A DNA stretch of 16,814 nt. It comes from a virus. Taxonomy: Duplodnaviria > Heunggongvirae > Uroviricota > Caudoviricetes. Positions within the stretch are counted from its first letter, which is position 1; every line of letters starts with the position of its first letter. The stretch lies in IMG/VR virus record IMGVR_UViG_2548876962_000006, positions 1-16,814 of that record; one strand, 5' to 3'. The translations under genes were made by a program, and so were the position numbers. Shown piece after piece: positions 520-16,814 of this stretch. The notes under the pieces are model-generated. The model worked only from the letters and a program-made list of their open reading frames with translations, made no database searches and had not been told where the DNA came from.

Positions 520-523
520 ACCA

Positions 524-1121: not shown

Positions 1122-1454
1122 ATGACCACATCGCATTCTGCAATTACCGAGGAAAAAGCCTTCCACATACTCGAACGACTGGAGGCGCTCGCCACAGAGG
1201 AAGAAATCGCCCCGGAGAAACTGGTTGAGTGCTGCCGTGTGATGTTGCGCCGCAAGAACGACATCGCGAGGCTGACATCCTACACATCATCCGTATCTAT
1301 CAGGCAAACGCTTTATTGCAGCTTCTGCAAGAAACCACAGCACGCCATCAAAAAGTTAATTGCCGGGGACGACGTTTTCATCTGCGACGAGTGTGTGGAA
1401 GTGTGCAACAGCGTTATCCGAGAAGAACAAGGAACGCAGGGAGCAGGAAGATGA
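1122..1454 (+). CDS. Stand-alone protein with a C-terminal ClpX-type C4 zinc-binding domain (ZBD)
   Basis: ATG 1122 preceded by AGGAG at 1111-1115. The C-terminal segment [40 protein letters not shown] aligns residue-by-residue with the E. coli ClpX N-domain ([40 protein letters not shown], recalled from memory) including all four Zn-ligand Cys. There is no AAA+ module. The N-terminal 55 aa are acidic/helical and unrecognised. Confidence 0.7.
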
Positions 1455-1520
1455 ATGACGAATTTGACGGCTTTTAATTTTATCGGGGCGCACTGTCGCC
1501 CCCGCACTAAGGAAAACACG

Positions 1521-2581: not shown

Positions 2582-2594
2582 ATCCACGACAAAC

Positions 2595-2620
2595 CAGGGC
2601 GATAATCACACATCGCCCTG
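2595..2620 (+). terminator. GC-rich hairpin (9-bp stem, 8-nt loop) 14 nt after the Ea22-like stop; possible terminator or RNA-processing structure
   Basis: CAGGGCGAT (2595-2603) pairs with ATCGCCCTG (2612-2620). No immediate U-tract; the nearest T-run is at 2647-2654, so intrinsic-terminator status is uncertain. Confidence 0.3.
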
Positions 2621-2621
2621 C

Positions 2622-2648
2622 TGCACAATAGTGCACAAATTTGCACAA
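2622..2648. promoter_or_regulatory. Three direct TGCACAA repeats with exact 10-bp phasing (iteron- or operator-like); a fourth copy at 2714-2720
   Basis: Read directly: TGCACAA at 2622-2628, 2632-2638 and 2642-2648, plus 2714-2720. Nearby are GGATCCGT direct repeats (2692-2699, 2703-2710) and the 14-bp palindrome AAAAACGCGTTTTT (2721-2734). Confidence 0.5.
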
Positions 2649-2962
2649 TTTTTTTGAACGACTTTTTACCCTTCCGGCCCGCGTGGCGGCTGGATCCGTA
2701 AAGGATCCGTGCGTGCACAAAAAAACGCGTTTTTGTTGCGCGCGGGTGCCGGGGGAACAGCCCGCAATTTGGGGTCTGAAAGCACCCTCAGAAAGCGCCA
2801 GAAATGCGGCTGATTGCGCCCCTGACGCGATGTTTTTTGTTGGGGTATCGTGTGTATTGCGCGATCTCATTCGCACTCTGTGGCTTGTTCTGGATGTGTG
2901 GTGCAGTCCGCGCCATTGAGGAGCGTGACAGGATACAGATGACATCAACAGAAGGAGGAGCC

Positions 2963-3466
2963 GTGGGACACTTTGAGGATTTGTGTTGCATTAACCGGGA
3001 TGTGGAAAGAAAGCGTTATCGGGCCACTGAAATCTTACGGGATGAGGCCCGTAGCCTGGTCGGGTTTTATGAGGACTGGCTGGGGCTTCCGTCGCTGTAC
3101 CGCGAACACGAACACGGCGAGTCGCGGCCTTATGTGGAAACAGGCCTGCCCTGTCGGAACGCGGAAGACTTTCGCGCCTGTTCTGTTAATCAAATCCCTG
3201 TCGCAGCAGACGGTATTTTCCATGTGGCCGTGCGTACATGGATTGAATCACTGTCGGGTATTGAGCCGGTTGATATTGTTGTTGCGTTTGAGTTGCATTC
3301 GGTGAGCGAAGCTCGCACTACGCTGAAAGTCACCGTGGAGGATGATGTTTCTGTTCGCGTGAGCATTACTGCGCCGGAAGACAGGAAATGGACGGGGGTG
3401 ACGAAAAGCATGAAAAGACACATCGCCGTCCGTCTGAAAAAACGCGCTCCGTTTGCACTTCGTTAA
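2963..3466 (+). CDS. Hypothetical protein (about 167 aa), unknown function, last gene before the Q stop and cos region
   Basis: Open frame 2804-3466. Best start by RBS is GTG 2963 (AAGGAGGAG at 2952-2960); alternatives are ATG 2939 and ATG 2804, the latter adding a hydrophobic Cys-rich N-terminus. No family recognised. Confidence 0.45.
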   Translation: MGHFEDLCCINRDVERKRYRATEILRDEARSLVGFYEDWLGLPSLYREHEHGESRPYVETGLPCRNAEDFRACSVNQIPVAADGIFHVAVRTWIESLSGIEPVDIVVAFELHSVSEARTTLKVTVEDDVSVRVSITAPEDRKWTGVTKSMKRHIAVRLKKRAPFALR

Positions 3467-3482
3467 GCCGGAGCTGGTGAGT

Positions 3483-3507
3483 CGGGGCATAAATTTTTTA
3501 TGCCCCG
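3483..3507. terminator. Perfect 11-bp-stem hairpin (CGGGGCATAAA-TTT-TTTATGCCCCG) between convergent genes; candidate bidirectional terminator and/or cos-associated structure
   Basis: Read directly. It lies in the 67-bp gap between the plus-strand gene ending 3466 and the minus-strand Q gene ending 3534. No flanking U-tract on either strand. Confidence 0.35.
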
Positions 3508-3533
3508 GCGAAGCAGCAGACAAGCGCAGCGCG

Positions 3534-4583
3534 TCAGGATGTGGGCGGGGCATCCAGCAGTGCGTAAGGGTTAAAGCGGATCACCTCCTCACCCAGCCAG
3601 TCATTAACGTGCTTCATCGCCTCCATCACCGGCATCAGTTCGTTGATCGCAAACACTCTTGCCGCCTTCTCCACATCACCAAATGACCCCTGTCCGCTGG
3701 GCATTGCGCCCATCAGTTGTGGTGGTACGCGGTGAGCAGCCAGCACATCATCGCGGGAGGCCGCCTTGACGTTCATAAACTCATCCCGGGCGGTGATCTG
3801 CTGGAACGGCAGGATTTGCACACCGTCCTTCCCGCCGTTCGGTGCCTGGAGCAGCAGGTTTTTGAATGCCCCACCGCCTCTTGCACCCTGCAACGCTCTT
3901 TCGAGCGCCTGCATGCTTTCGCGGTCAACCTGTGCTGCTCCCACGTAAATAATGCAGCCTGCGTGTGAACCGTTGTCATAGTAGAGTTTGCGAAAACGAT
4001 CTGCCGAATGCGACAGACTGGCAGACAACAGGCCGCCGAGATATTCCGGCATTCCGTACATCTCCTGGTTGATGTCAGGGTTCAGCACATGACAGACGCG
4101 CCCCTGACGGAACTCGTGGTCCTGCTCGCCCGTCTGTACAAACCAGTACACATCCGGCTCAACACCACGACGGACGTATTTTGCCAGGGCATGGCGCAGT
4201 TCCAGTTTTCCGCCCAGCCTGTTGGTGCGCAGTTCAAGAAACGCATTCCCGAAGACAAACCAGTCCAGCGCAAAGGCGGAGAACGCCTGCCGGGACAGCA
4301 GCCGGTGCGGAATGAAGCAGCCCAGAATGGCATTTCGTTTGAAGTACAGCGCCGACTGATGCCACGAGGTCTGCCGGGATGCCCGCGCCAGCCCGTACCA
4401 GTCAACGGGTGTTTCGTAGTACCTGCCGTTACTCAGGCAGTATGCGTTATCCAGCAGGTCGAGCGCGTGCGCATCGTAAGGGCCATCGAACGAGAAAGCG
4501 CTTAGCGACGGCTGGCGGCGCAGTGCCTCTGCCAGCTCCACGCCGTCATCGCGGCGGGTATATTTTCGTTTTTGTTTTTTCAT
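3534..4583 (-). CDS. Q: Portal protein (P2 gpQ homologue)
   Basis: 349-aa ORF, size and position as for P2 Q (about 344 aa), immediately downstream of and overlapping the terminase gene; start codon overlaps the P stop. Confidence 0.9.
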   Translation of the reverse strand: MKKQKRKYTRRDDGVELAEALRRQPSLSAFSFDGPYDAHALDLLDNAYCLSNGRYYETPVDWYGLARASRQTSWHQSALYFKRNAILGCFIPHRLLSRQAFSAFALDWFVFGNAFLELRTNRLGGKLELRHALAKYVRRGVEPDVYWFVQTGEQDHEFRQGRVCHVLNPDINQEMYGMPEYLGGLLSASLSHSADRFRKLYYDNGSHAGCIIYVGAAQVDRESMQALERALQGARGGGAFKNLLLQAPNGGKDGVQILPFQQITARDEFMNVKAASRDDVLAAHRVPPQLMGAMPSGQGSFGDVEKAARVFAINELMPVMEAMKHVNDWLGEEVIRFNPYALLDAPPTS

Positions 4584-6337
4584 CAGAACTCAATCACCCG
4601 CATTCCTGTTGCACCGTCCTCATCGCCCAGCGGCTCGTTAATGACGGCAAGCATGGTTGCCCACGCGAGGTCGCCGTGGTTTACGCCGCGCGTGCGGTCT
4701 GTTTCATACGTTATTGCGCCGCCCGCCGTTTTTGCCTTGCGCACGGCGTTGAATGCCCTGACCAGCTCACGTTCGCCCCGGTCATACTCCCAGCGCCCTG
4801 CACGAATAATCTGCAACATCTTCAGCACAAGCGCGCGTTTGGATGCCAGCGTGAACGTGTACGGTACGGCGGCAGGCCAGAACCGCCGCACTATCTGGTA
4901 CACTGCCTCACCGTTACCGCCGGTCACGTCGATGCCAATGTGCCGGACGTTGTATTTGTGCGTGAACTGCTCAATCACACGGGCCTGCTCTTCAAATTCC
5001 AGCCCCTGCACCTGCAAGGTCTCCACCGTGCGGAATTTGCCGCCCCTGACAGCAGGTGGTACAACAACAGACAGCGCCCCGCTGTCGCCATTACCGCTGC
5101 TGCCGTTAGCGTCGTAGCCAATCCACACGGGACGATTACCCACGGGACGTGCTGCGAACGGTTTCCAGTCATTCCACTCGTCATAGCCATCCACGCCACA
5201 TCCCAGCAGGGCATTAAGATCGAAGGCGGATTCGCCGTCGCTGACAAACTCGCACATGTAGAGATTGCGGAACTCATCCGGCGTGTTCATGTTGCGGATT
5301 TTGTCGATACTGGTGAGCGTCCAGCCCAGGTCCACAGCATCCTGAATCGTCACGATTTGCCGCCACGCACTGTCGGGGCACAGCACTCCACTCTTCAGGG
5401 CGTGATGGGACACATCAATCTCCCTGCGCTCACTGCGTGGTCGCCCTGCATTCCACCGCGCGCCGTTCCAGAACTGAAACGCCTCGTGCATCTCCGATGA
5501 CGGCGTGGAAAAGTAGGTCTGCGTCAGGCCATTCAGCGTGGCCATCGCGCCTGCGACCTTGCGCAGCGTGATGAAGTTCGACACCCAGAAAAATTCGTCA
5601 AAATACAGATTGCCCGTATATGACTGTGCAGTCGCGGCGGATGTCCCCAGAAAATGCAGTTCCGCGCCACTGGAAAGCACAATTTTGTCACCGCCTTTCA
5701 GCTCGACGTCCACAGCCTGTGCCGCCTTCTGAATCACGCTTTTAAACTGAAAGGCCTGACGGCGTGAGGCTGACAAAAAAATCTGGTTTCGCTGGTACGG
5801 ATATTTCACGCGCTCATCCAGCGCACGCAGCAGTGCCTCCTGCGCAAAATACCAGGTCGCGCCTATCTGTCGGGATTTCACAATAATGCGAATATCAACA
5901 CCGGCACGGCGGCAGACTTCCAGCGCCTCATACCAGCGTCGCTGATGTTCTGCCAGCTGACCGGTGATGTGTTCGCGCAGTGCGGCAACCTGCGATTCGG
6001 AAAAATGGTTTTTCAGCTTTCGTTTTCGCGGGCTTTTTTCCGCGCAGCCCTTGCTGTCATTCAGTTTTGCGAGCTGGCGTGTCAGCAGGTCGATTTCCTT
6101 AAAATCACCGCCGCTCTTTTCAGCTTTTGAGGTCAGCTGAACCAGCCGCGCATCAATCGACTGCGTGACCCGCTCCACGGGCGGCGTTTCATCCCATCCG
6201 TCGCGCTTTTTCCACGAATAAATCGTGTTCTGACTGATACCCATCAGCCGCGATATTTCAGCGGGCGGGTAACCCTGCCAGTAAAGCTGTTTTGCCCGCA
6301 GCCTGATGAATGCGTCCTGAATCATGTCGTCTGTCAC
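4583..6337 (-). CDS. P: Terminase large (ATPase/nuclease) subunit (P2 gpP homologue)
   Basis: 584-aa ORF divergent from O, as in P2. The ORF-track start is GTG at 6337 with AGGAG directly adjacent; ATG at 6325 (MIQDAF...) is an alternative start. Confidence 0.9.
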   Translation of the reverse strand: MTDDMIQDAFIRLRAKQLYWQGYPPAEISRLMGISQNTIYSWKKRDGWDETPPVERVTQSIDARLVQLTSKAEKSGGDFKEIDLLTRQLAKLNDSKGCAEKSPRKRKLKNHFSESQVAALREHITGQLAEHQRRWYEALEVCRRAGVDIRIIVKSRQIGATWYFAQEALLRALDERVKYPYQRNQIFLSASRRQAFQFKSVIQKAAQAVDVELKGGDKIVLSSGAELHFLGTSAATAQSYTGNLYFDEFFWVSNFITLRKVAGAMATLNGLTQTYFSTPSSEMHEAFQFWNGARWNAGRPRSERREIDVSHHALKSGVLCPDSAWRQIVTIQDAVDLGWTLTSIDKIRNMNTPDEFRNLYMCEFVSDGESAFDLNALLGCGVDGYDEWNDWKPFAARPVGNRPVWIGYDANGSSGNGDSGALSVVVPPAVRGGKFRTVETLQVQGLEFEEQARVIEQFTHKYNVRHIGIDVTGGNGEAVYQIVRRFWPAAVPYTFTLASKRALVLKMLQIIRAGRWEYDRGERELVRAFNAVRKAKTAGGAITYETDRTRGVNHGDLAWATMLAVINEPLGDEDGATGMRVIEF

Positions 6338-6391
6338 CTCCTGTCATACAGGCTACACGCGCACGTCCCGCCTGTATTCACACCGCACTTT

Positions 6392-6409
6392 GTCGCAACG
6401 CTCTGACAA
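6392..6409. promoter_or_regulatory. TGT-N12-ACA dyad: candidate Ogr/Delta-type late-activator binding site in the divergent P/O promoter region
   Basis: Read directly: TGT at 6392-6394, 12-nt spacer, ACA at 6407-6409, about 70-85 bp upstream of the O start codon (6477). P2-family late promoters carry this element centred near -55. Confidence 0.5.
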
Positions 6410-6476
6410 CACCACCGCGTTGAGCGCGGGCCGCAGGGCGCGTCATCATGAGCACAACGATATTCGAGGAGGCCGT

Positions 6477-7346
6477 ATGGCAGACAAGAAACCTGAACGA
6501 AAAAAATTCCGCGTGGCCGTTTCCGGTACGACCTCAGACGGGCGCGAAATCTGTGGCGATATGCTGAAAGCTGCCGCCGCCAGTTATGACCCGTCCGTCT
6601 ACGGTGCACGTGTGAACGTGGAGCACATCCTTTCACCGCACCCGGACAGCGCCTTCGCGGCGATGGGGGATGTGGTGGCACTGAGCGCAGAGGACATCAC
6701 TGACGGGCCGCTGGCGGGGCGCACGGCGCTGTATGCCGAAATTGAACCCACCGGACGCATGAAGAAACTGCTGGATGACGGCAAAAAGATTTATGCCAGC
6801 GTCGAGCTTTACCCGCAGTCATTCATCACGGGCGGTCCGTATCTTCAGGGACTGGCGATGACCGACAGCCCGGCAAGTCTTGGCACTGAGCGTCTGCAGT
6901 TTGCCGCACAACAGCGCGCGCAGGTGATGGCGTTTAACAATCAGCAGTGCGAGCCGCCACTGTTCACCGATGCCATTGAGGCTGAAATTATCGCCCTGAA
7001 CCAGCGCCAGAACGACGAAGGCGTTCAGTGGTTCGCGCGTGTCATGAACCTTATCAGCGGCGGGCGTAAAACGGACGGCGAACAGTTTGCGCAGATGCGT
7101 GACGTTGTGGAGCGCGTGGCCTCTGCGCACGCTGACCTGCTTGACCGTTTCAACACACAGGAACGCCAGCGCGACGAAGACCGCGCACAAGTCACCCGCC
7201 TGACCCGCGAACTGACCACGCTGCGTACACAGCTGCAGGCACAGGACGGCGACCCGCATCAGCGTTTCTCCGCAACGGGCACTGACACACCTGTTCACAC
7301 TGGCGTAACCGGCGGCGGTATTGCTTACACCGCCTGTGATTTCTGA
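6477..7346 (+). CDS. O: Capsid scaffolding protein (P2 gpO homologue)
   Basis: ATG 6477 preceded by GAGGAGG at 6466-6472. The 289-aa product matches P2 gpO (about 284 aa) in size and in position upstream of the major capsid gene. Confidence 0.85.
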   Translation: MADKKPERKKFRVAVSGTTSDGREICGDMLKAAAASYDPSVYGARVNVEHILSPHPDSAFAAMGDVVALSAEDITDGPLAGRTALYAEIEPTGRMKKLLDDGKKIYASVELYPQSFITGGPYLQGLAMTDSPASLGTERLQFAAQQRAQVMAFNNQQCEPPLFTDAIEAEIIALNQRQNDEGVQWFARVMNLISGGRKTDGEQFAQMRDVVERVASAHADLLDRFNTQERQRDEDRAQVTRLTRELTTLRTQLQAQDGDPHQRFSATGTDTPVHTGVTGGGIAYTACDF

Positions 7347-7355
7347 GGATTAACC

Positions 7356-8417
7356 ATGAACCTGACTCTTTCATCCACCACCCGCGGCGCTCTGGCGATG
7401 TACATGCAGCAGCAGGCGCGCATGAACAATGTTTCTCCTGCTGCGCTTGCCCAGCGTTTCAACGTTCAGCCCGCCGTGCAGCAGCGCCAGGAAAACGCCA
7501 TTCAGCTGAGCGACGAGCTGCTGCAAAAAATCAACGTCATCGGTGTGACCGACCAGAAAGGCGAAAAAGTCCTGATCGGCATCAACGGTCCGTCCGCCAG
7601 TGTGAACACCAGTACAAGCGAGCGCCGCGAGCCGGCATCACTCCACGAGCTGACGGCACGCCAGTACGCCTGCGAGCAAATCAACTACGACACGTTCATC
7701 AGCTACGCGCAACTGGACGCGTGGTCCGCACACCCGGATTTTCAGGCACGGGTCAGCGCGCAGATTGCCCGCCGTATCGCCCTTGACCGCATCATGATTG
7801 GTTTCAACGGCACGTCCCGCGCCGTGAAGTCCGACCGCAGCAGTAATCCGCTGTTGCAGGACTGCGCCGTGGGCTGGCTGGAAAGCATCCGCCAGAATGC
7901 AGCCCAGCGCGTGATGTCTGATGTCACCATTACGGCACGCGATATGAACAACGCCGTCACCCACAAAGGCAAGTACAACAACCCGGACGCGCTGGTACAG
8001 GATGCGCGCTCATCCCTGCTGGACGAGTGGTACAAGGATTCATCCGACCTTGTGGTGATGATGGGACGCGACCTGTTCAACACGCTGCGCCTGCCGCTCA
8101 TTAACGCCATGAGTGCCGCCGCGCCGAACACGGAACTGATGGCCGGTCAGCTGATTACCTCCTCCCGCCTGATTGGTGGTCTGCCGGTATATCTCGCGCC
8201 GTTCTTCCCGGCAGATGCACTGCTCATCACCTCGTTCGACAACCTGTCCATCTACTACCAGGTGGGGGCATTGCGTCGTCTGATGCGTGAAGAGCCGGAC
8301 TACAACCGCATCGCAACCTATCAGTCCTCCAGCGATGCCTGGGTGGTGGAAGACTTCGGCAAATGCGCCCTTATCACGGGGCTGAAACTGGCTGATGAAA
8401 GTAATCACGAAGACTGA
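7356..8417 (+). CDS. N: Major capsid protein (P2 gpN homologue)
   Basis: 353-aa ORF (P2 gpN is about 357 aa) between scaffold and small terminase; RBS GAGGA upstream of ATG 7356. Confidence 0.85.
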   Translation: MNLTLSSTTRGALAMYMQQQARMNNVSPAALAQRFNVQPAVQQRQENAIQLSDELLQKINVIGVTDQKGEKVLIGINGPSASVNTSTSERREPASLHELTARQYACEQINYDTFISYAQLDAWSAHPDFQARVSAQIARRIALDRIMIGFNGTSRAVKSDRSSNPLLQDCAVGWLESIRQNAAQRVMSDVTITARDMNNAVTHKGKYNNPDALVQDARSSLLDEWYKDSSDLVVMMGRDLFNTLRLPLINAMSAAAPNTELMAGQLITSSRLIGGLPVYLAPFFPADALLITSFDNLSIYYQVGALRRLMREEPDYNRIATYQSSSDAWVVEDFGKCALITGLKLADESNHED

Positions 8418-8466
8418 TTTATCTGAACCACGGGCGGGCGCTGACCGCCCGTAAGAGGAGAGAACA

Positions 8467-9279
8467 ATGCTGACACCGGCACAGGCGCATTTTCAGCGCA
8501 CGATGGCACAACGCGCCGGACTGACCGATGACAGTCAGTCACAGACAGTGCGCACGGCTCACGAACAAATCCTGCACCGTCTGCGACTGGCACAGGCACG
8601 ACTGAAAGGCATTCAGTCAAAGGCGGCGAAAGCGGAACTGAAAAAGACGCTGCTGCCGGATTTTTCCGGCTGGATTGACGGCACGCTGGAGAGCGACAGC
8701 GGACGCCAGGATGAGGTGATTGTCACCCTCATGGTCTGGGCCGTTGACTGTGGTGATTTGCCGCTGGCGCTGCGTATCGGTGAGTACGTGGTGCGCCATA
8801 ACCTCAGCACACCGGACAGCTTCGGGCGCGATGCCGCCACGCTGCTGACAGAGGAAATCTGTAACCCGGTGCTGACGCTGGCAGGCACTGACCAGGACGC
8901 GGATTTGTCCGGGTACATCGCCCCGCTGGATACCCTCTGGACAATCGTCACCAACCGGGACATGCCGGATGAGGTTCGCGCCAAACTCTGCAAGGCGCGC
9001 GCGTTTTCCCGTCGTGCTCTGACAGATGCAGACAGTGTGACCCTGTCGCTGAAACTGCTGCGCGAAGCGATGCACCTGAACCCGAACGCGGGCGTGAAGC
9101 GCGAGATTGCCACGCTGTCCCGCGCGGTAAAAAAGCTGACCAGCAGTGATGGCGGGGAGAACAACGCGGAAAACAAAAGCACCGCGAAAACCGCCACCAC
9201 GAAAACCGCGACGAAAAAGGCAGGCAAAAAGAGCGCCACAAAAGCCACTGCCACACGGAAAAGCAAAAAATCCGCGTGA
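8467..9279 (+). CDS. M: Terminase small (endonuclease) subunit (P2 gpM homologue)
   Basis: Similarity to P2 gpM as recalled (LLPDFSGW...; ...DMPDEVRAKL...; AGVKREI...), with a Lys/Ala/Thr-rich basic C-terminal tail as in gpM. RBS GAGGAGAG upstream. Confidence 0.85.
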   Translation: MLTPAQAHFQRTMAQRAGLTDDSQSQTVRTAHEQILHRLRLAQARLKGIQSKAAKAELKKTLLPDFSGWIDGTLESDSGRQDEVIVTLMVWAVDCGDLPLALRIGEYVVRHNLSTPDSFGRDAATLLTEEICNPVLTLAGTDQDADLSGYIAPLDTLWTIVTNRDMPDEVRAKLCKARAFSRRALTDADSVTLSLKLLREAMHLNPNAGVKREIATLSRAVKKLTSSDGGENNAENKSTAKTATTKTATKKAGKKSATKATATRKSKKSA

Positions 9280-9402
9280 AATTCAGCTTTCACGCATAAC
9301 GACTTCGCCCCGGCGACAGGCGGCGCGGACGGTCACCTGGTTTTTAACTCCGCGACCTTCTGACCGTTCGCCCACCGCCTGATTTTTTTACGGAGGCTCG
9401 TC

Positions 9403-9897
9403 ATGAGCATGATTGCAAAACCCGGTATCACTGCCGCGACGGAGGATGTCGCGGACACGGACGACGGTGATGCACGCATCACCACGGACGACTTCTGGCC
9501 GGAGACAGAACTTCAGGCGCTGCGCCTTGCCGTTCGCCTGCCCGGTCGCACCACCACGTCACGTCTGATGCACGCGGCAACCGAAGCCGTGGCACACGTC
9601 ACCGGAGAGCTGCGCAACTGGCAGGCGCAGCAGATGAATGACGGATACAGCACGCTGGCGGACGTTCCGGCCTCCCGCGTGAACGGCGAAAGTGTCAACG
9701 TGCACCGCTTCCGCCTTGCGGTGTATGCCGCCACCCGCGCCCTGATACTGGAGCGCGTGCGCGATGTGGATACCACTGAACAGGGCGACCGGAAAGCGGA
9801 CGCACTGGAAGCCCAGACCGGCGACCTCTGGCGCGACGTGCGCTGGGCCATTGCCGATATTCAGGGCGCACCGCGCATTTTTGCGAGGCTGTGCTGA
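9403..9897 (+). CDS. L: Head completion/stabilisation protein (P2 gpL homologue)
   Basis: 164-aa ORF at the gpL position; GGAGG RBS; stop overlaps the start of X. Confidence 0.8.
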   Translation: MSMIAKPGITAATEDVADTDDGDARITTDDFWPETELQALRLAVRLPGRTTTSRLMHAATEAVAHVTGELRNWQAQQMNDGYSTLADVPASRVNGESVNVHRFRLAVYAATRALILERVRDVDTTEQGDRKADALEAQTGDLWRDVRWAIADIQGAPRIFARLC

Positions 9898-10097
9898 TGA
9901 AGGTGAAGGCATTACAGGGCGACACCGTTGACCTGCTGTGCTTCCGGCACTACGGCACCACGCAGGGCGTGACCGAAAAGGTGCTGGCCGCCAATCCGGG
10001 GCTGTGCGGACAGATTTTTCTGGAAGCCGGACAGGAAGTGGAATTACCGGAGCAGGAAGAGAAAAAAACACAGGAGACGGTGCAGTTATGGGATTAG
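9897..10097 (+). CDS. X: Tail protein X (LysM-like, P2 gpX homologue)
   Basis: MKVKALQGDTVDLLCFRHYGTTQGVTEKVLAANPGL closely parallels P2 gpX (MKTFALQGDTLDAICVRYYGRTEGVVETVLAANPGL, recalled). ATG 9897 overlaps the L stop. Confidence 0.85.
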   Translation: MKVKALQGDTVDLLCFRHYGTTQGVTEKVLAANPGLCGQIFLEAGQEVELPEQEEKKTQETVQLWD

Positions 10098-10381
10098 GTT
10101 TTTTTCGCAGTATTTACGACCACATCGCCTTCGCCGCCTCCGTTTCTGCGGTCACGATTGGCGCAATGACCATCAGTGAAAAAATCGCACTGGCCGGGCT
10201 GCTGCTGGGTGCGCTGTCTCTCTTTCAGGGCTGGCTTCACCGCCGCCGCATGGAGCGTGCACAGGTCCGCCGCAATGCGCTGATTGCACAGATTCTGGCG
10301 CAGGCCGGAACGCGCGGGCTTCATGAAAGTGAACAACGGGCGCTTGCCGCACTGCAACGGGATAACGATGAAAAACATTAA
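10088..10381 (+). CDS. Holin, two predicted TMDs (class II-like; possible pinholin)
   Basis: 97-aa product with two hydrophobic helices (AFAASVSAVTIGAMTI; IALAGLLLGALSLF) and a charged C-terminal tail. It sits immediately upstream of, and overlaps, the endolysin gene. Confidence 0.7.
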   Translation: MGLGFFRSIYDHIAFAASVSAVTIGAMTISEKIALAGLLLGALSLFQGWLHRRRMERAQVRRNALIAQILAQAGTRGLHESEQRALAALQRDNDEKH

Positions 10382-10910
10382 GCGATATGCCGCCGCCGTG
10401 ATTGTGGCGCTGGGTGTCTCGCTGGCTCCCGAAGCACTGCGCACCTCACAGGAGGCGCAGATAAAAATTGCCACGTGGGAAGACTGCCGCGCCACACCCT
10501 ACACGGACATCGCGGGTGTTGCCACCGTGGGCTGCGGCTCCACGGGGAACGTACAGAAACACCTGTACAGCGAACAGGAGGTGGCCCGCCGCTGGGTGAA
10601 TGACATGCAGCGGGCGGAGAACTGTATTAACCAGAATTTTCAGGGGGCAGCCATGCCGCAGTCGGCCTTCGAGGCGATGACGGATGCGGCCTTCAATCTG
10701 GGCTGTTCCGGCCTGATGTGGTTTAAGGACCGCAACGGAAAGCGCCAGCGCACCACCATCTGGAAACAGGCACAGACGCATAACTGGGCGCTGATGTGCA
10801 CCCGCCTCACGGATTTTGTGAATGCGGGCGGGAAGCGCAGTCAGGGACTGGTTAACCGCCGCAGCGATTTTCGCACCTGGTGTCTGCGGGATGTGGAGAA
10901 ACCGAAGTGA
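10368..10910 (+). CDS. Endolysin, GH24 T4-lysozyme-like muramidase with an N-terminal SAR-like hydrophobic segment
   Basis: Catalytic E-x8-D-x5-T triad is present (WEDCRATPYTDIAGVAT). N-terminal KRYAAAVIVALGVSLAPEAL is consistent with a signal-arrest-release domain. The ATG overlaps the holin 3' end. It does not resemble P2 gpK. Confidence 0.8.
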   Translation: MKNIKRYAAAVIVALGVSLAPEALRTSQEAQIKIATWEDCRATPYTDIAGVATVGCGSTGNVQKHLYSEQEVARRWVNDMQRAENCINQNFQGAAMPQSAFEAMTDAAFNLGCSGLMWFKDRNGKRQRTTIWKQAQTHNWALMCTRLTDFVNAGGKRSQGLVNRRSDFRTWCLRDVEKPK

Positions 10911-11353
10911 GACTGACCACCGCCGCCGTTGTCGCCCTGTTTTCAGGGGCGCTGTATCTGGTGTCGCTGCGTCTGGCCTGGCAGGCAGGGCATGAACGGG
11001 CACGTCGTGAATATCACGAACAGGCGCTGGCGGGAACGAATGCCGCCGTGGATGCACTTCATGCAGAACTCCGGGGCATCAGCGGCCTGCTGGCGCAGGT
11101 CCGCGCCGCAGAGCAGCACCGGAATCAGGAAGGAGAAAAACGCCGTGAAGAGATACGCAACGCACTCCGGGAAAATCCGTGCGCGGCTGCTGCTGTGCCT
11201 GCCGCTGTTGCTGACCGCCTGCAACAGCGCGCCGCGACCCGTCGTGGTCACTCAGACGCAGCACGCACCGCTGCCGGAAAGTCTGACACAGCCAACGCCG
11301 GTCCCCTCCCTGCCCCGACCGCTGACGTGGGGCGGACTGGCCGTCTGGAGTGA
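10907..11353 (+). CDS. lysB: i-spanin (Rz/LysB-like inner-membrane spanin subunit)
   Basis: GTG 10907 with GGAG 8 nt upstream, overlapping the endolysin stop. N-terminal TMD (TTAAVVALFSGALYLVSL) followed by a charged coiled-coil periplasmic region. An o-spanin gene starts within it in the +1 frame. Confidence 0.6.
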   Translation: MRLTTAAVVALFSGALYLVSLRLAWQAGHERARREYHEQALAGTNAAVDALHAELRGISGLLAQVRAAEQHRNQEGEKRREEIRNALRENPCAAAAVPAAVADRLQQRAATRRGHSDAARTAAGKSDTANAGPLPAPTADVGRTGRLE

Positions 11354-11438
11354 CAGGCTGCTGGACGCGCTGGAGAGCTGCAACGCCGACAAGGCAGCCA
11401 TTAAAGCAACCGAACAACAACGCCGGATGCGACCGTAA
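11145..11438 (+). CDS. lysC: o-spanin (Rz1/LysC-like outer-membrane lipoprotein), overlapping the 3' part of the i-spanin gene
   Basis: GTG 11145 with AGGAG at 11131-11135. Lipoprotein signal with lipobox LLTAC followed by a Pro-rich mature part. Overlapping architecture as for P2 lysB/lysC. Confidence 0.65.
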   Translation: MKRYATHSGKIRARLLLCLPLLLTACNSAPRPVVVTQTQHAPLPESLTQPTPVPSLPRPLTWGGLAVWSDRLLDALESCNADKAAIKATEQQRRMRP

Positions 11439-11447
11439 GGAGAAGTC

Positions 11448-11930
11448 ATGCTGAAAATGAACCGTCTGCGCGAAGCCCTCACAGCCTCATCCCGGTGGTG
11501 TCGCGCGAATCCGGAAAAACTCACCGTGTTTGCAGAAAGCGGAAGTATTGAGACCACAGGTGAAACCCCGACGTTTGTCTACCGTTACACGCTCGTGGCC
11601 TTCGTTATGGATTTTCCGGGACACATCGACGAGCTGATGCTGCCGCTGATTGTCTGGCTCATGCACAACCAGCCGGATTTGCTGCTTAACCCGGAAAAAA
11701 ACCAGGACGTTAAGTTTTCCGTTGCTGTCAATGACGACGACAGCACCGACCTGTTACTGGAGATTCCCGTGCGCGAGCGCGTGAAAGTCTGCCGCAATGA
11801 ACGGGGTGAACTGTATCCGGTGCACCTGCCGGAACCCCGCCCGCCTGCCGCACTGACGGGCGCATGGGGGGGGCTGATTGTTGAGGATGTGACCTTTAAG
11901 GATTTGACGGATGAACACGACGACGCATGA
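11448..11930 (+). CDS. R: Tail completion protein (P2 gpR homologue)
   Basis: AAGGAG RBS. MLKMNRLREALTASSRWCRANPEKL... parallels the P2 gpR N-terminus as recalled; 160 aa against about 155 aa in P2. Confidence 0.8.
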   Translation: MLKMNRLREALTASSRWCRANPEKLTVFAESGSIETTGETPTFVYRYTLVAFVMDFPGHIDELMLPLIVWLMHNQPDLLLNPEKNQDVKFSVAVNDDDSTDLLLEIPVRERVKVCRNERGELYPVHLPEPRPPAALTGAWGGLIVEDVTFKDLTDEHDDA

Positions 11931-12549
11931 AACGGACGCGGTTTTTCGCGACATCCTGAGCGGGCTTTCCGCCGCCGGACGGGCACGCACGGCGCGGGCT
12001 GTCGGGCAGGCGCTGCGCCGGAGCCAGCAGGCGCGCATCCGCGCACAGAAGAACGCAGACGGTTCGCCGTATCCGGCACGAAAACGGCAGGTGATGCACA
12101 CCCGTCGTGAAGTGAAATTTGTGTGGAACGGCGAGGTCCGCACGCTGCGCCAGTGGGGACACAAGCGTTACCGGAAAGGCCGCGCCATTATCGGGCGCGA
12201 CCCTGACCGTGGCGGTGCGCTGAGGACGTTTTACCGCGATGATATTGAGCGATACATCGCGGTATCGTCCATGTCTGCCCGCCAGACCAGCAAAAAAAAC
12301 ACGCCGATGTTCGCGCGTCTTCGCACATACCGCTGGTTAAAAATGCGCTCAGATGCGGAAGGCGCTGTTGTGGGCTTCGATGGCCTGGCTGCGCGGATTG
12401 CCCGCGTGCATCAGGCAGGGTTACGCGACGAGGTGGCTCCGGGCGTGATGACCACCTACCCGGTGCGTGAACTGCTGGGTATAACCGCAGCCGACGAACG
12501 CCTGGTATATGACACGATTATCCGCTCCCTGAGGAGTGCGGCACGATGA
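11911..12549 (+). CDS. S: Virion morphogenesis / tail completion protein (P2 gpS-like), longer than P2 S
   Basis: Conserved gpS-like segments (RIRAQKNADGSPYPARK...; VVGFDGLAARIARVHQAGL...; RELLGIT...). The start overlaps the 3' end of R and the stop overlaps the V start. 212 aa against about 150 aa suggests internal insertions. Confidence 0.7.
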   Translation: MNTTTHETDAVFRDILSGLSAAGRARTARAVGQALRRSQQARIRAQKNADGSPYPARKRQVMHTRREVKFVWNGEVRTLRQWGHKRYRKGRAIIGRDPDRGGALRTFYRDDIERYIAVSSMSARQTSKKNTPMFARLRTYRWLKMRSDAEGAVVGFDGLAARIARVHQAGLRDEVAPGVMTTYPVRELLGITAADERLVYDTIIRSLRSAAR

Positions 12550-13127
12550 CAGCGGAAATCATGCGACTGCTTGCAAACATCATCCGTACGGGCGTGATTT
12601 TTGCCGTGGACGAAACCACGTGGCGCGTTCGTGTGCGCAGCGGAGAGCTGGAAACCGACTGGCTGCGCTGGAACACACCACGCGCGGGCGCGTTCAGCGT
12701 CTGGCTGCCGCCTGCCGTGGGCGAACAGGTCATGATTGCCTGTATCAATGGCGACCCCGTAACCGCTTCCGTTATCGGCGGTCTCTGGAGCAGTGAACAT
12801 CCGGCGCCCGGCAGCAGCCTGAAGGAAATCGTGGTCACAGCGCCTGACGGCGCGGTGTTCCGCTACGATGCGGACGCAGGTGCACTGAGCGCCAGCGGGA
12901 TCAGAACCGCCACCATTCAGGCCGGAACGGGCGTGACGCTGGACACCCCCACCGTCACCTGCACAAACCATCTGAAGGCGGCAACGATTGAGGTGACAGA
13001 AGGCGGAACCCTGAGCGGCAATATCTCGCACAGCGGCGGTAGCTTCACATCAAACGGTGTGACGGTGCACACGCACAAACACAGTGGCGTGAAGAGCGGC
13101 AGCGACAGCACAGGAGGCCCGCAATGA
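12546..13127 (+). CDS. V: Baseplate assembly protein V (spike/hub)
   Basis: 193-aa ORF at the gpV position, with a Gly/Ser/Thr-rich C-terminal region typical of spike proteins; ATGA overlap with S. Confidence 0.85.
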   Translation: MTAEIMRLLANIIRTGVIFAVDETTWRVRVRSGELETDWLRWNTPRAGAFSVWLPPAVGEQVMIACINGDPVTASVIGGLWSSEHPAPGSSLKEIVVTAPDGAVFRYDADAGALSASGIRTATIQAGTGVTLDTPTVTCTNHLKAATIEVTEGGTLSGNISHSGGSFTSNGVTVHTHKHSGVKSGSDSTGGPQ

Positions 13128-13489
13128 GTGCACGTTTTCTGGGGATGAACCCCGAGGCCACCGGCACACTCAGCGATACGGACCATCTGTGGAACAGCGT
13201 GAGGGATATTCTGTTAACGCCGCTCGCCAGCCGGGTGATGCGCCGGGAATACGGCAGCCTGCTGCCGGATTTGCTGGATGCACCGATGAATGCCACCACA
13301 CGCCTTCAGTGCATGAGCGCCGTGGTGATTGCCCTGACACAGTGGGAGCCACGCATCGCCCTGAATGCCGTTGACATTCAGTGGGAGGCGGGCGGAAAAG
13401 CCGTCATCACCCTCACCGGCACCCTGACAGAAAGCCTTGAAACCGTACAAAACACACTGACACTCAGGAGCGACAATGCCAGCCGTTGA
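13124..13489 (+). CDS. W: Baseplate assembly protein W (GPW/gp25 family)
   Basis: MSARFLGMNPE...VRDILLTPLASRVMRREYGSLLPDLLDAP matches the conserved GPW/gp25 N-terminal signature; 121 aa. Confidence 0.85.
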   Translation: MSARFLGMNPEATGTLSDTDHLWNSVRDILLTPLASRVMRREYGSLLPDLLDAPMNATTRLQCMSAVVIALTQWEPRIALNAVDIQWEAGGKAVITLTGTLTESLETVQNTLTLRSDNASR

Positions 13490-14372
13490 CCTGTCGGAAC
13501 TGCCGACACCACAGATTATTGAAACGCCGGATTTTGAGGTCATCCTGGCGGAGGTGAAAGAAAGCATGATTACGGCATTCCCGCAGATACAGCAGGCTGC
13601 TGTCCGGTCAGCCATGGCGCTGGAGTCCGAACCGCTCACGGTCATTGCCCAGACTTTTGCGCTGCGTGAGTTGCTGCATCGCCAGCGTATTAATGAGGGC
13701 GCAGCGGCCTGTATGCTGAGTCACTCCTCAGGCAGCAACCTGGATAACCTCGCCGCCAACATGAACACCGCGCGACTGGTCATCACTCCGGCCACGGACA
13801 CCACGGAGGCCGTCATGGAAAGCGACACAGCCCTGCGGCTGCGTGCGCAGTCTGCATTTGATGGCCTCAGCGTGGCCGGTCCCACCGGGGCGTATGAATA
13901 TTTTGCCCGCAGTGCCAGCGGTCAGGTGGCGGACGCGCGCGCAACCAGCCCCGCACCGGCGGAAGTGGTGGTGGCGGTGCTGTCCACAGAAGGCGACGGC
14001 ACGGCGACCGAAGAACTCCTGACAACGGTCAGAAATGCGCTGAATGCCGAAGACGTTCGCCCGGTCGGTGACCGTCTGACGGTACAGAGCGCAGAAATCA
14101 TCCGGTATCAGATTGATGCCCGGCTTTACTTTTATCCGGGGCCGGAGTCGGAACCCATCCTGAATGCTGCCAGAAATAACCTGAAAGCCTGGCTTGCTGA
14201 ACAAGGCAAAATCGGTCGCGATGTGGCGCTCTCCGCCATCATGGCCACGCTGCATGTTCAGGGCGTTCAGCGCGTGGAACTGACCAGCCCCGCACAGAAT
14301 ATTGTTATCAGCGATGTGCAGTCAGCGTACTGCACATCGTTTTCGGTCAGTGCAGGAGGCACCAATGAGTGA
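13476..14372 (+). CDS. J: Baseplate assembly protein J
   Basis: 298-aa ORF (P2 gpJ is about 302 aa) following W with overlap; conserved order W-J-I. Confidence 0.85.
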   Translation: MPAVDLSELPTPQIIETPDFEVILAEVKESMITAFPQIQQAAVRSAMALESEPLTVIAQTFALRELLHRQRINEGAAACMLSHSSGSNLDNLAANMNTARLVITPATDTTEAVMESDTALRLRAQSAFDGLSVAGPTGAYEYFARSASGQVADARATSPAPAEVVVAVLSTEGDGTATEELLTTVRNALNAEDVRPVGDRLTVQSAEIIRYQIDARLYFYPGPESEPILNAARNNLKAWLAEQGKIGRDVALSAIMATLHVQGVQRVELTSPAQNIVISDVQSAYCTSFSVSAGGTNE

Positions 14373-14898
14373 ACCGTCACTGCTCCCCCCTTCAGCCAGT
14401 GATTTCATGCGCTGCGTGGAACGGGGTACGACCCGGCTGTCAGCATTACCTGTCAGCCTTAACCAGCTCTGGGATCCTGACACCTGCCCGGTGGCTCTGT
14501 TGCCTTATCTGGCGTGGGCGCTGTCCGTGGACAGGTGGGACCGTGACTGGACGGAAGAAACAAAGCGCCAGGTGATCCGTGATGCTTGGGCAATCCACCG
14601 CCATAAGGGAACCATCAGCGCCATCAGGCGTGTGGTTGAACCCTTTGGCTATGTCATTAACGTGACGGAATGGTGGGAAACCGGCGATACGCCAGGGACT
14701 TTCCGGCTGGACATCTGTGTACTGGATGTGGGGATCACAGAGGAAATGTACACCGAAATGGAAAGACTCATTGCCGATGCCCGCCCGGTGAGCCGTCATC
14801 TGGTTGGCCTGAATATCATGCAGGATATTCAGGGATACCTGTATACCGGCGGCGTTGTGTATGACGGCGACGTTATTACGATTTATCCGCAGGAATAA
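14365..14898 (+). CDS. I: Baseplate/tail protein I
   Basis: ATG 14365 with GGAGG RBS, overlapping the J stop; 177 aa against about 176 aa for P2 gpI. Confidence 0.8.
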   Translation: MSEPSLLPPSASDFMRCVERGTTRLSALPVSLNQLWDPDTCPVALLPYLAWALSVDRWDRDWTEETKRQVIRDAWAIHRHKGTISAIRRVVEPFGYVINVTEWWETGDTPGTFRLDICVLDVGITEEMYTEMERLIADARPVSRHLVGLNIMQDIQGYLYTGGVVYDGDVITIYPQE

Positions 14899-14904
14899 GA
14901 CAGT

Positions 14905-16814
14905 ATGAGCATCAGATTTAAAACTGTGATCACCACTGCCGGTGCAGCAAAACTGGCCGCCGCCACCACAACATCGGAGCAGAAAGTCAGCATCACACAT
15001 ATGGCCGTGGGAGATGGTAATGGAAATCTCCCGGAACCATCGGCCTCACAGACCGCCCTGATCCATGAAGTCTGGCGCGGGACGCTGAATAAAATTACAC
15101 AGAACAGCAAAGCGCCGAATCAGGTGATTGCGGAACTGGTTATTCCGCCGGAAGTCGGCGGCTTCTGGATGCGTGAGCTGGGACTGTATGACAGTACCGG
15201 TACCCTGATTGCGGTGGCCAGCATGGCGGAAAGCTACAAACCCCTGCTCACGGAAGGCTCCGGGCGCGCCATGACCTGTCGCATGATTATTATCATCAGT
15301 GACGTTAATGCCGTAAGCCTGTCTGTGGACAGCACAACCATTATGGCAACACAGGACTATGTGGATGACAAACTTGCAGAGCACGAGCAGTCCCGCCGTC
15401 ACCCGGACGCCTCACTGACGCAAAAGGGCTTTACGCAGCTCAGCAGTGCAACGGACAGCGACAGCGAGTCAGTGGCAGCAACGCCAAAAGCGATCAAGAC
15501 TCTTAATGACACAAAAGCGCCACTCAAAAGCCCGGCGCTGACGGGCACACCGACAGCACCGACTGCGGCACAGGGCACAAATAATACGCAGATTGCTACG
15601 ACTGCTTACGTACGGGCTGCTATATCTGCACTGGTCGGCTCATCACCAGAAGCTCTTGATACCCTGAATGAGCTTGCCGCAGCCCTTGGCAATGACCCGA
15701 ACTTTGCGACAACAATGACAAATGCGCTGGCAGGGAAACAGCCACTTGATGCAACTTTAACCGCGCTTGCTGGTCTTGCGACAGGCGCAAATAAATTGCC
15801 GTACTTTACCGGTACAGACACTGTTTCTCAGACTGACTTAACGTCAGTCGGTCGCGATATTCTGGCCAAAACAAGCGTTCTTGCTGTTATCCAATACCTT
15901 GGTTTAAGAGAACTCGGTACCAGCGGTGAAAAGATCCCCCTGTTGAGTACGGCTAACACATGGAGTGCGCGCCAGACTTTCAACGGCGGGATCACCGGAG
16001 CGCTGACAGGGAACGCCGATACCGCGACGAAATTAAAAACAGCCAGAAACATTAATGGCGTCAGGTTCGATGGTTCGGCTGACATTAATATCAATACTCT
16101 GGTATCTCGCGGTCGCGTAACGGCCCTGGAGGCGAATGCACAGGGAACATCCGGGATTCAGCTGTATGAGGCATACAACAATGGCTACCCTTCCCCCTAT
16201 GGCAATGTGCTTCACCTTAAAGGTGCCACCGCTGCTGGCGAAGGTGAGTTATTCATTGGCTGGAGTGGCACGAGCGGTGCCCATGCGCCCGTACATATCC
16301 GTTCGCGGCGGGATACTGATTCTGCCAACTGGTCTGAATGGGCGCAGGTCTATACGTCAAAAGATTCAATTCCCGGCGTCAATGCCAAAGGGAATCAGGA
16401 CACCTCTGGTAATGCGGCTACAGCGACCAAGTTGCAGACAGCATGTACTATCAATGGCGTCTCGTTTGATGGTTCTAAAGATATTGAACTTAACCCACGG
16501 TCTATAGGCACAATCAACTCCACAACAATGTCTTTTAGTGGTGGTGCAGGATGGTTCAAGCTGGCAACTGTAACCATGCCACAGGCGAGTTCTGTTGTTT
16601 CAATTACGTTGATTGGTGGCGCTGGATATAACGTCGGTTCACCTCAACAGGCAGGTATATCTGAACTTGTTTTGCGTGCAGGTAATGGTAATCCGAAGGG
16701 GATTACTGGTGCTTTATGGCAGCGCACATCGACAGGGTTTACAAATTTTGCCTGGGTCAATACATCCGGTGATACCTATGATGTTTATGTTGAAATAGGT
16801 AATTACGCCACAGG
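14905..16814 (+). CDS. H: Tail fibre protein (P2 gpH homologue), 5' part; the ORF continues past the window end
   Basis: Frame verified open by manual translation from ATG 14905 to base 16812. N-terminus MSIRFKTVITTAGAAKLAAAT...IHEVWRGTLNKI...ELVIPPEVGGFWMRELGLYD is near-identical in pattern to P2 gpH as recalled. The C-terminal part carries phage-fibre repeats. Confidence 0.85.
   Translation, partial: MSIRFKTVITTAGAAKLAAATTTSEQKVSITHMAVGDGNGNLPEPSASQTALIHEVWRGTLNKITQNSKAPNQVIAELVIPPEVGGFWMRELGLYDSTGTLIAVASMAESYKPLLTEGSGRAMTCRMIIIISDVNAVSLSVDSTTIMATQDYVDDKLAEHEQSRRHPDASLTQKGFTQLSSATDSDSESVAATPKAIKTLNDTKAPLKSPALTGTPTAPTAAQGTNNTQIATTAYVRAAISALVGSSPEALDTLNELAAALGNDPNFATTMTNALAGKQPLDATLTALAGLATGANKLPYFTGTDTVSQTDLTSVGRDILAKTSVLAVIQYLGLRELGTSGEKIPLLSTANTWSARQTFNGGITGALTGNADTATKLKTARNINGVRFDGSADININTLVSRGRVTALEANAQGTSGIQLYEAYNNGYPSPYGNVLHLKGATAAGEGELFIGWSGTSGAHAPVHIRSRRDTDSANWSEWAQVYTSKDSIPGVNAKGNQDTSGNAATATKLQTACTINGVSFDGSKDIELNPRSIGTINSTTMSFSGGAGWFKLATVTMPQASSVVSITLIGGAGYNVGSPQQAGISELVLRAGNGNPKGITGALWQRTSTGFTNFAWVNTSGDTYDVYVEIGNYAT

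Follow-up and report, generated by a model that had tools for sequence, protein, structure and literature searches.

The stretch of DNA analyzed here, called the window in the following, covers 16,814 nucleotides (nt), positions 1 to 16,814 of the IMG/VR record IMGVR_UViG_2548876962_000006, and is the late region of a P2-like (Peduoviridae) Escherichia coli prophage. After the terminase gene P, the gene order is O, N, M, L, X, four lysis genes, R, S, V, W, J, I, and a tail-fiber gene. The lysis genes occupy the slot between X and R, and we consider it likely that they form a lysis cassette of the type known from Haemophilus phage HP1, with a proposed mechanism that combines a pinholin with a signal-arrest-release (SAR) endolysin. 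The cassette and its two boundary genes are the following:

9897 to 10097, plus strand: tail protein X (PF05489, 74.6 bits; 54% identical to P2 X), upstream boundary of the cassette
10088 to 10381, plus strand: two-helix holin (ATG start; 97 amino acids (aa); phrog_1350)
10368 to 10910, plus strand: GH24 endolysin, SAR-type (ATG start; 180 aa; PF00959)
10386 to 10427, plus strand: stretch that encodes the endolysin's hydrophobic SAR-like core (Y7-A20), read from the sequence
10907 to 11353, plus strand: i-spanin, Rz/LysB-like (GTG start; 148 aa; phrog_214)
11145 to 11438, plus strand: o-spanin, Rz1/LysC family (GTG start; precursor of 97 aa; PF23793, phrog_456)
11448 to 11930, plus strand: tail completion protein R (PF06891, 132 bits; 37% identical to P2 R), downstream boundary of the cassette

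The cassette is compactly built. The holin gene overlaps X by 10 nt, the endolysin gene overlaps the holin gene by 14 nt, and the start codon of the i-spanin gene overlaps the stop codon of the endolysin gene (GTGA; 4 nt). The o-spanin gene lies in the +1 frame relative to the i-spanin gene, shares 209 nt with it, and continues for 85 nt past its end, and R starts 9 nt after the o-spanin gene. From L to V, all junctions are overlaps or gaps of at most 9 nt, which leaves no space for a further gene. The four lysis genes, at 10088 to 11438, lie where the original prediction, made from the sequence alone, had placed them. A hidden antiholin in alternative frames was considered and rejected; only short open reading frames (ORFs) without hydrophobic helices were found. 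A dual-start motif is absent from the holin, and the cassette is predicted to encode neither a separate antiholin (lysA) nor a dual-start antiholin.

The holin was assigned to the holins of phrog_1350 (1.5e-18). A Kyte-Doolittle scan revealed two hydrophobic helices at about residues 13-29 and 33-50, and an AlphaFold2 (AF2) model of modest confidence consists of helices 3-26 and 29-96 with a single break at residues 27-28. These results bear out the earlier claim that the holin has two transmembrane domains (TMDs) and not three. The loop between the TMDs is S30-E31-K32, and the C-terminal tail is strongly basic (HRRRMERAQVRR; +6/-1 in residues 51-62); by the positive-inside rule, the protein would be oriented N-in/C-in. 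TMD2 contains an invariant G37xxxG41 and has a small-residue face (A34, G37, G41, S44, and G48), and S18, G37xxxG41, and R52 are invariant in the holin family including HP1 Hol. Comparison with HP1 Hol yielded 32% identity over 59 aa in BLASTP (E = 4e-5) and a probability of 69% in hhalign (E = 4e-5), and the score against PF16080, the family of HP1 holins (TCDB 1.E.7), was 20.9 bits (E = 3.6e-4) and thus below the gathering threshold of 28.8. The protein is a class II (two-helix) holin and, judged by these comparisons, probably a distant relative of HP1 Hol. Its small size and its two TMDs are as expected for a pinholin.

An in-frame start at GTG 9938, which would lengthen the holin to 147 aa, was rejected; the ORF would then overlap X by 150 nt, this start lacks a Shine-Dalgarno (SD) motif, and the homologues all start at MG(L/M). 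Just past the stop codon of X, codons 4-6 of the holin gene (GGT TTT TTT) contain a run of seven T at 10099-10105, which is a potential slippage site. The Phe-Phe that it encodes is kept in several homologues.

The endolysin matched PF00959 (Phage_lysozyme) over residues 36-166 with 80.4 bits, compared to a gathering threshold of 22.3; the only NCBIfam match was a sub-threshold one to a GTA endolysin. The triad E38-(8 aa)-D47-(5 aa)-T53 lies directly after the N-terminal hydrophobic segment, in agreement with the original prediction. The three residues align column for column with E42, C51, and T57 of P1 Lyz (PDB 1XJT, E = 6e-32), and because these columns coincide with the catalytic positions of P1 Lyz, the triad is not a chance match. 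A Glu-8X-Asp/Cys-5X-Thr triad near the N-terminus defines the GH24 motif (PMC3556154). The endolysin shares 40% identity with P1 Lyz, 39% with HP1 Lys, and 27% with R21 of phage 21, and from its sequence it can be classified as a T4/P1-type GH24 muramidase and a relative of P1 Lyz.

The N-terminus of the endolysin consists of an n-region M1-R6 (MKNIKR) and an h-region Y7-A20 (YAAAVIVALGVSLA), followed by P21-E22. The best 17-residue stretch (residues 8-24) has a mean Kyte-Doolittle value of 1.94 and a G/A/S/T fraction of 0.47, and the core of 14 residues is short. The sequence thus exhibits the features expected of a SAR endolysin, namely basic residues, a weakly hydrophobic, G/A/S-rich segment, and the catalytic domain directly after it. 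A Tat signal and a lipoprotein signal were considered for this N-terminus and rejected, as neither a twin-Arg motif nor a lipobox is present.

SAR endolysins are divided into classes, and those of class II (R21 type) are activated when the SAR helix refolds and thereby repositions the catalytic Glu. By definition, their triad is the canonical E-D-T and their SAR segment is free of Cys (bioRxiv 10.64898/2026.09.09.750462). The cysteines of the window endolysin are C40, C56, C86, C113, C144, and C172. Residues 1-39 contain no Cys, and Tyr7 occupies the column of the SAR Cys. The triad has Asp47 at the position where class I enzymes have a Cys, and the pivot Cys40, two residues after the catalytic Glu (E+2), is retained. 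Both hallmarks of class I, the SAR Cys and the triad Cys, are thus missing, and the motif is that of class II. With no SAR Cys and with Asp in place of the triad Cys, the switch by disulfide isomerization would be unusable by this enzyme.

The i-spanin matched the Rz-like spanins of phrog_214 (9.8e-25) and also phrog_89, the family of P2 LysB (1.6e-4), and by hydropathy it has an N-terminal TMD at residues 3-19. It was assigned to the Rz/LysB-type i-spanins, which combine such a TMD with a helical domain in the periplasm and have a gene that embeds or overlaps that of the o-spanin. Its start codon GTG 10907 is preceded by GGAG 8 nt upstream. A start at GTG 10880 was rejected in favor of 10907, which has this motif and the 4-nt overlap with the endolysin stop codon found in annotated relatives. 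The i-spanin and P2 LysB cross-match each other's PHROGs (phrog_89 and phrog_214); pairwise BLAST between the two proteins gave no match, and the relation is visible only at the profile level. The o-spanin matched PF23793 (LysC) with 61.2 bits (gathering threshold 27) as well as phrog_456, and scored 17.6 against the NCBIfam P2_Rz1 equivalog, below its cut-off of 27. An SD motif (AAGGAG) lies 9 nt upstream of its start codon GTG 11145, the lipobox is LLTAC26, and the mature part is proline-rich. The shorter o-spanin start chosen by the NCBI annotation pipeline PGAP (equivalent to 11193) was rejected, as it loses the basic n-region of the lipoprotein signal.

In P2 (NC_001895), which served as the reference, the lysis module is also located between X and R of the late operon and comprises Y, K, lysA, lysB, and lysC. 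P2 Y is a class I holin with three TMDs by hydropathy (PF04550, phrog_175), whereas the window holin has two helices and belongs to phrog_1350. P2 K is a cytoplasmic enzyme of the lambda-R type (1AM7, 4.6e-44) that does not match PF00959, whereas the window endolysin belongs to GH24, and thus, the two endolysins are from different enzyme families. BLASTP detected no similarity between the window holin and Y or between the endolysin and K. P2 also has a four-TMD antiholin, LysA, of which the window has no homologue. P2 LysA, Y, and K had no BLASTP or tblastn match in the window at E <= 1, and no match in the 21 related loci described below at E <= 1e-3. The absence of lysA, and of room for it, had been claimed before and is confirmed by the tight junctions and the negative tblastn search of the window with P2 LysA.

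The situation is different for the spanins. P2 LysC has PF23793 and phrog_456 in common with the window o-spanin, and the lysB and lysC genes of P2 overlap like the spanin genes of the window. The overlapping spanins had been counted among the differences from P2, which was not correct, as the overlap is identical in P2 and the o-spanin is a member of the LysC family. By sequence comparison, the difference from P2 is confined to Y-K-lysA, and the spanins are of the P2 type. The proposed modular replacement of the lysis genes can therefore be upheld for the holin and the endolysin, which differ in kind from those of P2, and for the absent lysA, but not for the spanins, which were not replaced. 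Modular variation at the lysis position is established from P2-like Burkholderia phages described in 2010, which have holins, endolysins, and antiholins unlike those of P2; LysB/LysC-like spanins are retained in two of these phages, KS14 and KL3 (PMC3091744). The window locus shows that, within the Peduoviridae, the holin-endolysin(-antiholin) part alone is exchanged, whereas the LysB/LysC spanins remain beside the tail genes.

The closest experimentally characterized system is the hol-lys pair of HP1 (Peduoviridae, Hpunavirus), which was studied by Adamczyk-Poplawska et al. 2020 (PMC7312051). HP1 Hol kills without lysis and without the release of beta-galactosidase, HP1 Lys lyses E. coli when it is overexpressed alone, and an antiholin gene is absent. 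The SecA inhibitor azide suppresses HP1 phage release and, by inference, lysis. Taken together, the behavior of the two proteins was shown to be that of a pinholin and a SAR endolysin (PMC7312051). The arrangement hol-lys-orf25 of HP1 resembles the window in that a two-TMD holin without dual start is followed by an overlapping gene for a P1-Lyz-like GH24 SAR endolysin and then by a LysB-like spanin gene. There are also several differences. The HP1 cassette is located after the tail tube genes, whereas the window cassette lies between X and R. HP1 Lys belongs to class I (SAR Cys11, E-8-C-5-T), whereas the window enzyme has Tyr7, Asp47, and Cys56. In addition, the window holin is 19 aa longer than HP1 Hol, and its C-terminal tail is much more basic. 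The strongest reason to regard the window holin as pinholin-like is that holin and endolysin are, as a pair, homologous to hol and lys of HP1.

For the window cassette, we infer export, tethering, release on depolarization, hole size, and timing as follows. The endolysin would be exported by Sec, and an uncleaved, short, weakly hydrophobic N-terminal SAR segment would tether it to the inner membrane. The two-helix holin would accumulate in the membrane and depolarize it at the trigger time, probably via small holes, as for its distant homologue HP1 Hol. Depolarization would free the SAR segment, which would fold back onto the muramidase body, yielding the active-Lyz-like conformation of the AF2 model. 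The freed GH24 enzyme (E38/D47/T53) would then degrade the murein, and the two-component spanin of the LysB/LysC type would disrupt the outer membrane. The same functional logic is known from S21/R21 of phage 21, which also has a two-TMD holin and an endolysin with E-8-D-5-T and no SAR Cys. However, S21 differs from the window holin in having a dual-start antiholin and a far less hydrophobic TMD1, and homology between the two is not detectable. R21 does not group with the window endolysin and was used as the outgroup in the trees. The R21 and S21 sequences used for these comparisons were verified with PDB 3HDE and the genome record of phage 21.

Several points weigh against this mechanism. With regard to the holin, the match to PF16080 is sub-threshold, and the hhalign probability for HP1 Hol is only 69%. 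TMD1 (G/A/S/T fraction 0.59; summed apparent free energy of insertion, dGapp, +1.2) is about as hydrophobic as TMD2 (+1.8) and far more hydrophobic than TMD1 of S21 (+6.2), and an exit of TMD1 in the style of S21 is not implied. A SAR endolysin does not prove a pinholin either, because P1 pairs its SAR endolysin with a canonical holin (PMC6116005). With regard to the endolysin, the summed dGapp of the 17-residue segment is +4.0, compared to about 0 for the SAR segments of P1 and R21. Due to this less favorable insertion and the short h-region, the segment also resembles the core of an ordinary signal peptide. Lastly, the tethered endolysin would have to be kept inactive without a Cys switch.

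It might thus be argued that the protein is a canonical large-hole class II holin, the depolarization by which triggers the SAR endolysin, as for LydA/Lyz of P1. The hydrophobicity of TMD1, close to that of TMD2 and unlike that of S21 TMD1, would fit such a holin, as would the only moderate homology to HP1 Hol and the absence of homology to S21 (PF04971 family), for which no Pfam match and no BLASTP match were found and hhalign returned a probability of 1.5%. Furthermore, phages with exported endolysins may keep canonical holins according to reviews (PMC6116005). LydA itself, which is described as canonical (PMC6116005), is unrelated to the window holin. In contrast, HP1 Hol, the sole characterized relative, retains beta-galactosidase and kills without lysis (PMC7312051), the invariant GxxxG and the small-residue face of TMD2 are like those of pinholin TMD2, and the holin always occurs with a SAR-type endolysin in the 21 loci, so that selection for large holes would be lacking. 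A canonical holin is therefore rather unlikely, and we prefer a pinholin-like protein. This part of the original prediction needed a new foundation: it cannot be argued from S21, given the hhalign result and the hydrophobic TMD1, and is instead supported by the distant homology to HP1 Hol.

A second alternative concerns the endolysin, the N-terminus of which could be a cleavable Sec signal peptide. The enzyme would then be secreted in soluble form like Lys44 of fOg44, would be restrained by the energized membrane alone, and would never be tethered. The h-region of 14 residues, the basic n-region (K2, K5, and R6), and the small residues S18 and A20 are compatible with a signal peptide, and after loss of the SAR Cys the segment would no longer be needed for disulfide isomerization. 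However, the sole A-x-A-like site, S18-L19-A20, is directly followed by P21, a residue that all 39 homologues compared have in common; their h-region is conserved as well. A Pro residue at position +1 blocks signal peptidase I. In addition, relatives with 59-73% identity have a Cys in the homologous segment, at the position of Cys13 of P1 Lyz; because this is the Cys that P1 Lyz needs after release, the SAR segment appears to be retained in that family. The AF2 model of the endolysin (pLDDT 91) has an N-terminal helix 9-19 that is packed into the globular body (pLDDT 97). Active full-length P1 Lyz (1XJT) was the best fold match and superposed including its SAR helix (TM-score 0.89, root-mean-square deviation 2.2 A, 177 columns), and the TM-score with inactive P1 Lyz (1XJU) was 0.60; AF2 returned one conformer only, which is active-like. 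A cleaved signal peptide is thus improbable. From the invariant P21, the SAR Cys of the relatives, and the predicted packing like in active P1 Lyz, the N-terminal segment is very probably a retained, uncleaved SAR segment, in line with the original prediction. The comparisons with P1 Lyz and R21/S21 that had been suggested showed the endolysin to be a P1 Lyz relative, albeit one without the cysteine switch of P1, and the holin to be unrelated to S21.

To define the distribution of the cassette, deposited phage genomes and bacterial genomes were searched. A megablast of the cassette against deposited phage genomes matched only with the first 146 nt (gene X; 78%), and a close DNA relative was not found. 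At the protein level, the endolysin is 59-71% identical to endolysins of Klebsiella and Enterobacter peduoviruses. Three phages, phiT5282H (Enterobacter, Novemvirus), ST16-OXA48phi5.4 (Klebsiella, Reipivirus), and 3LV2017 (Klebsiella, Reginaelenavirus), have the same order L-X-hol-lys-Rz/Rz1-R-S. Their holins are 25-52% and their endolysins 59-69% identical to those of the window, and the endolysins keep the class I set, i.e., the SAR Cys, the Cys at E+2, the triad Cys, and an Ile three residues after the triad Thr (T+3). A scan of species-representative genomes with a holin profile built from 6 closer sequences added 16 loci in Edwardsiella, Citrobacter, Enterobacter, Pantoea, Erwinia, Symbiopectobacterium, Kosakonia, Serratia, and Brenneria. 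Together with the three phages and two E. coli prophages, 21 related loci were available. The order L-X-hol-lys-Rz/Rz1-R-S was found in all 21, across three genera recognized by the ICTV and many Enterobacterales; in two Erwinia loci the spanins were not detectable by similarity. Among 5426 complete E. coli genomes, the cassette is present in 33, seven of which match over the full query with 94-98% identity, and the Y-K-lysA block of P2 is present in 1571.

The GC content of the cassette is 0.61-0.65 and that of the flanking structural genes 0.59-0.61. E. coli typically has a GC content of about 51%, and the whole element of about 60% GC, not the cassette alone, is atypical for and foreign to E. 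coli. The rarity of the cassette in E. coli compared to P2 Y-K-lysA, together with P2-like phages that carry unrelated holin/endolysin modules while keeping LysB/LysC (PMC3091744), might suggest that illegitimate or homologous recombination recently brought the cassette into a P2 genome and left a young mosaic joint, but this is highly improbable, as there is no GC discontinuity at the cassette, the genes on either side share no more than 37-54% identity with P2, the genes X, hol, lys, Rz, R, and S co-diverge with their order kept in the 21 loci of many genera, and it is the entire element that is foreign to E. coli. Because of the conserved synteny and the GC content matching that of the flanks, the difference from P2 is old and lineage-wide. 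The description of the operon as otherwise P2-type was thus inaccurate: the whole element is distant from P2, as seen for X and R, and its gene order is characteristic of the lineage.

The cysteine pattern of the endolysin deserves a separate description. Compared to P1 Lyz (1XJT/1XJU), the prototype of class I, the window enzyme likewise has a SAR segment followed by the triad, its C40 aligns with the pivot Cys44, and four further Cys are conserved. In contrast, Cys13 of P1 Lyz is replaced by Tyr7, Cys51 by Asp47, and Ile60 by Cys56, and the h-region is shorter. The codons of these residues in the window are:

10386 to 10388, plus strand: Tyr7 of the endolysin
10485 to 10487, plus strand: Cys40 of the endolysin
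10506 to 10508, plus strand: Asp47 of the endolysin
10533 to 10535, plus strand: Cys56 of the endolysin

Motif typing of 50 close endolysin homologues revealed two types with perfect covariation at three sites. The majority type is class I like P1 and HP1 and has the SAR Cys, the Cys at E+2, the triad Cys, and Ile, Val, Leu, or Met at T+3. In the second type, Tyr stands in place of the SAR Cys, the Cys at E+2 (C40) is kept, the triad residue is Asp (D47), and T+3 has gained a Cys (C56). It comprises the window enzyme and 15 further cluster representatives, mostly from E. coli and one from Citrobacter. The Tyr/Asp/T+3-Cys pattern is also present in the loci of Edwardsiella piscicida and Citrobacter youngae. 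The analysis was extended by a profile search of 1.84 billion representatives, in which sequences with a hydrophobic N-terminus and a Cys at E+2 were counted:

SAR Cys present, no T+3 Cys: 72 sequences
T+3 Cys present, no SAR Cys (triad Asp in all): 18 sequences
neither SAR Cys nor T+3 Cys: 3 sequences
both SAR Cys and T+3 Cys: 0 sequences

Two of the 18 sequences with a T+3 Cys, P0081 and P0093, share only 31-34% identity with the window endolysin and group near HP1 Lys. The relationships were analyzed by neighbor-joining with 100 bootstrap replicates, which gave the following support:

window-type clade monophyletic: 89
P0081 and P0093 together: 100
a single exclusive clade of the two Cys-Asp-Cys groups: 0
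window clade with enterobacterial class I, without P0081, P0093, P1, and HP1: 100

Because a single clade was recovered in 0 of 100 replicates, the tree indicates at least two independent origins of the Cys-Asp-Cys combination. By motif, the window endolysin is a class II enzyme (R21-like) that is nested in the class I clade and derived from class I ancestors.

The simplest reading of this pattern is that C40 and C56 pair, as the pivot Cys needs a partner and C56 would take the role of the SAR Cys. We tentatively suggest, with somewhat less than even confidence, that a fixed periplasmic disulfide C40-C56 replaces the bond Cys13-Cys44 of active P1 Lyz, that a redox-switched enzyme was thereby turned into a topology-controlled class II enzyme, and that this is an undescribed third cysteine arrangement. 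A description of a C40/C56 arrangement was not found in the searchable literature, which did not include Kuty 2010. The step from class I to class II, in which the compensating Cys recurs, represents a natural experiment on the evolution of SAR endolysin regulation. Five further P1-Lyz-like sequences from the search (P0064, P0076, P0077, P0089, and P0095) have a triad Asp, an E-x-C-x-x-C motif, and, except for P0076, a SAR Cys; these may have a different disulfide arrangement beside the catalytic Glu.

The cassette is thus of a kind that is already known from HP1 and common in related enterobacterial prophages, and the locus, an E. coli example of an HP1-type pinholin/SAR-endolysin cassette, is largely ordinary. 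The detail that may be new is the cysteine combination of the endolysin, with SAR Cys and triad Cys lost and Cys56 gained. The cassette is also systematically mis-annotated. NCBIfam has no model that matches the holin or the i-spanin. In the PGAP/NCBI annotation of E. coli 2-1 (CP097198), E. coli Ch1 (CP127316), and P0001/P0003, the holin is called a hypothetical protein or, wrongly, a phage tail protein, and the start of the o-spanin is placed 16 codons too late. In E. coli 2-1 the i-spanin gene with its GTG start is unannotated, and the o-spanin equivalent is named lysC. In Ch1 the lysozyme starts at an internal Met (MAPGEL...), which cuts off the SAR segment. Mining these prophages for lysis genes or endolysins by existing annotation would miss or truncate them.

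Further observations concern the remainder of the window. The genes S (11911-12549) and V (12546-13127) overlap by 4 nt, and thus, the P2 region between S and V with the terminator, orf30, and the separate promoter region of the V operon is absent. The O and V late operons appear to be fused in the window, and the related phages have the same S/V layout. At the other end of the late region, the following genes and ORFs were found:

1 to 519, plus strand: gene for an actin-like ParM protein, with its reading frame open at the start of the window (PF21523, ParM C-terminal domain, 232 bits)
389 to 835, plus strand: Plasmid_stab_B (StbB/ParR-like) gene, downstream of and overlapping with the ParM gene
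1107 to 1454, plus strand: accessory ORF
1455 to 2045, plus strand: accessory ORF
2042 to 2581, plus strand: accessory ORF
2804 to 3466, plus strand: accessory ORF
3534 to 4583, minus strand: portal gene Q
4583 to 6337, minus strand: terminase gene P

The ParM gene and the StbB/ParR-like gene form a partition pair of the plasmid type, immediately beyond the portal end of the late region. Despite this adjoining pair, the lysis region matched only chromosomes in E. coli. Of the accessory ORFs between the partition genes and Q, one encodes a small protein that carries a C4 zinc finger of the ClpX type (PF06689), another encodes a protein resembling Ead/Ea22 (PF13935), and two have no Pfam match, and the GC content of this block is 0.49-0.55, compared to about 0.60 in the structural genes. 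At the opposite end, the tail-fiber (H-like) ORF on the plus strand (about 14900-16814) is open for 638 aa up to the window end, and the GC content of its distal part falls to 0.49-0.52, as expected for a mosaic receptor-binding region.

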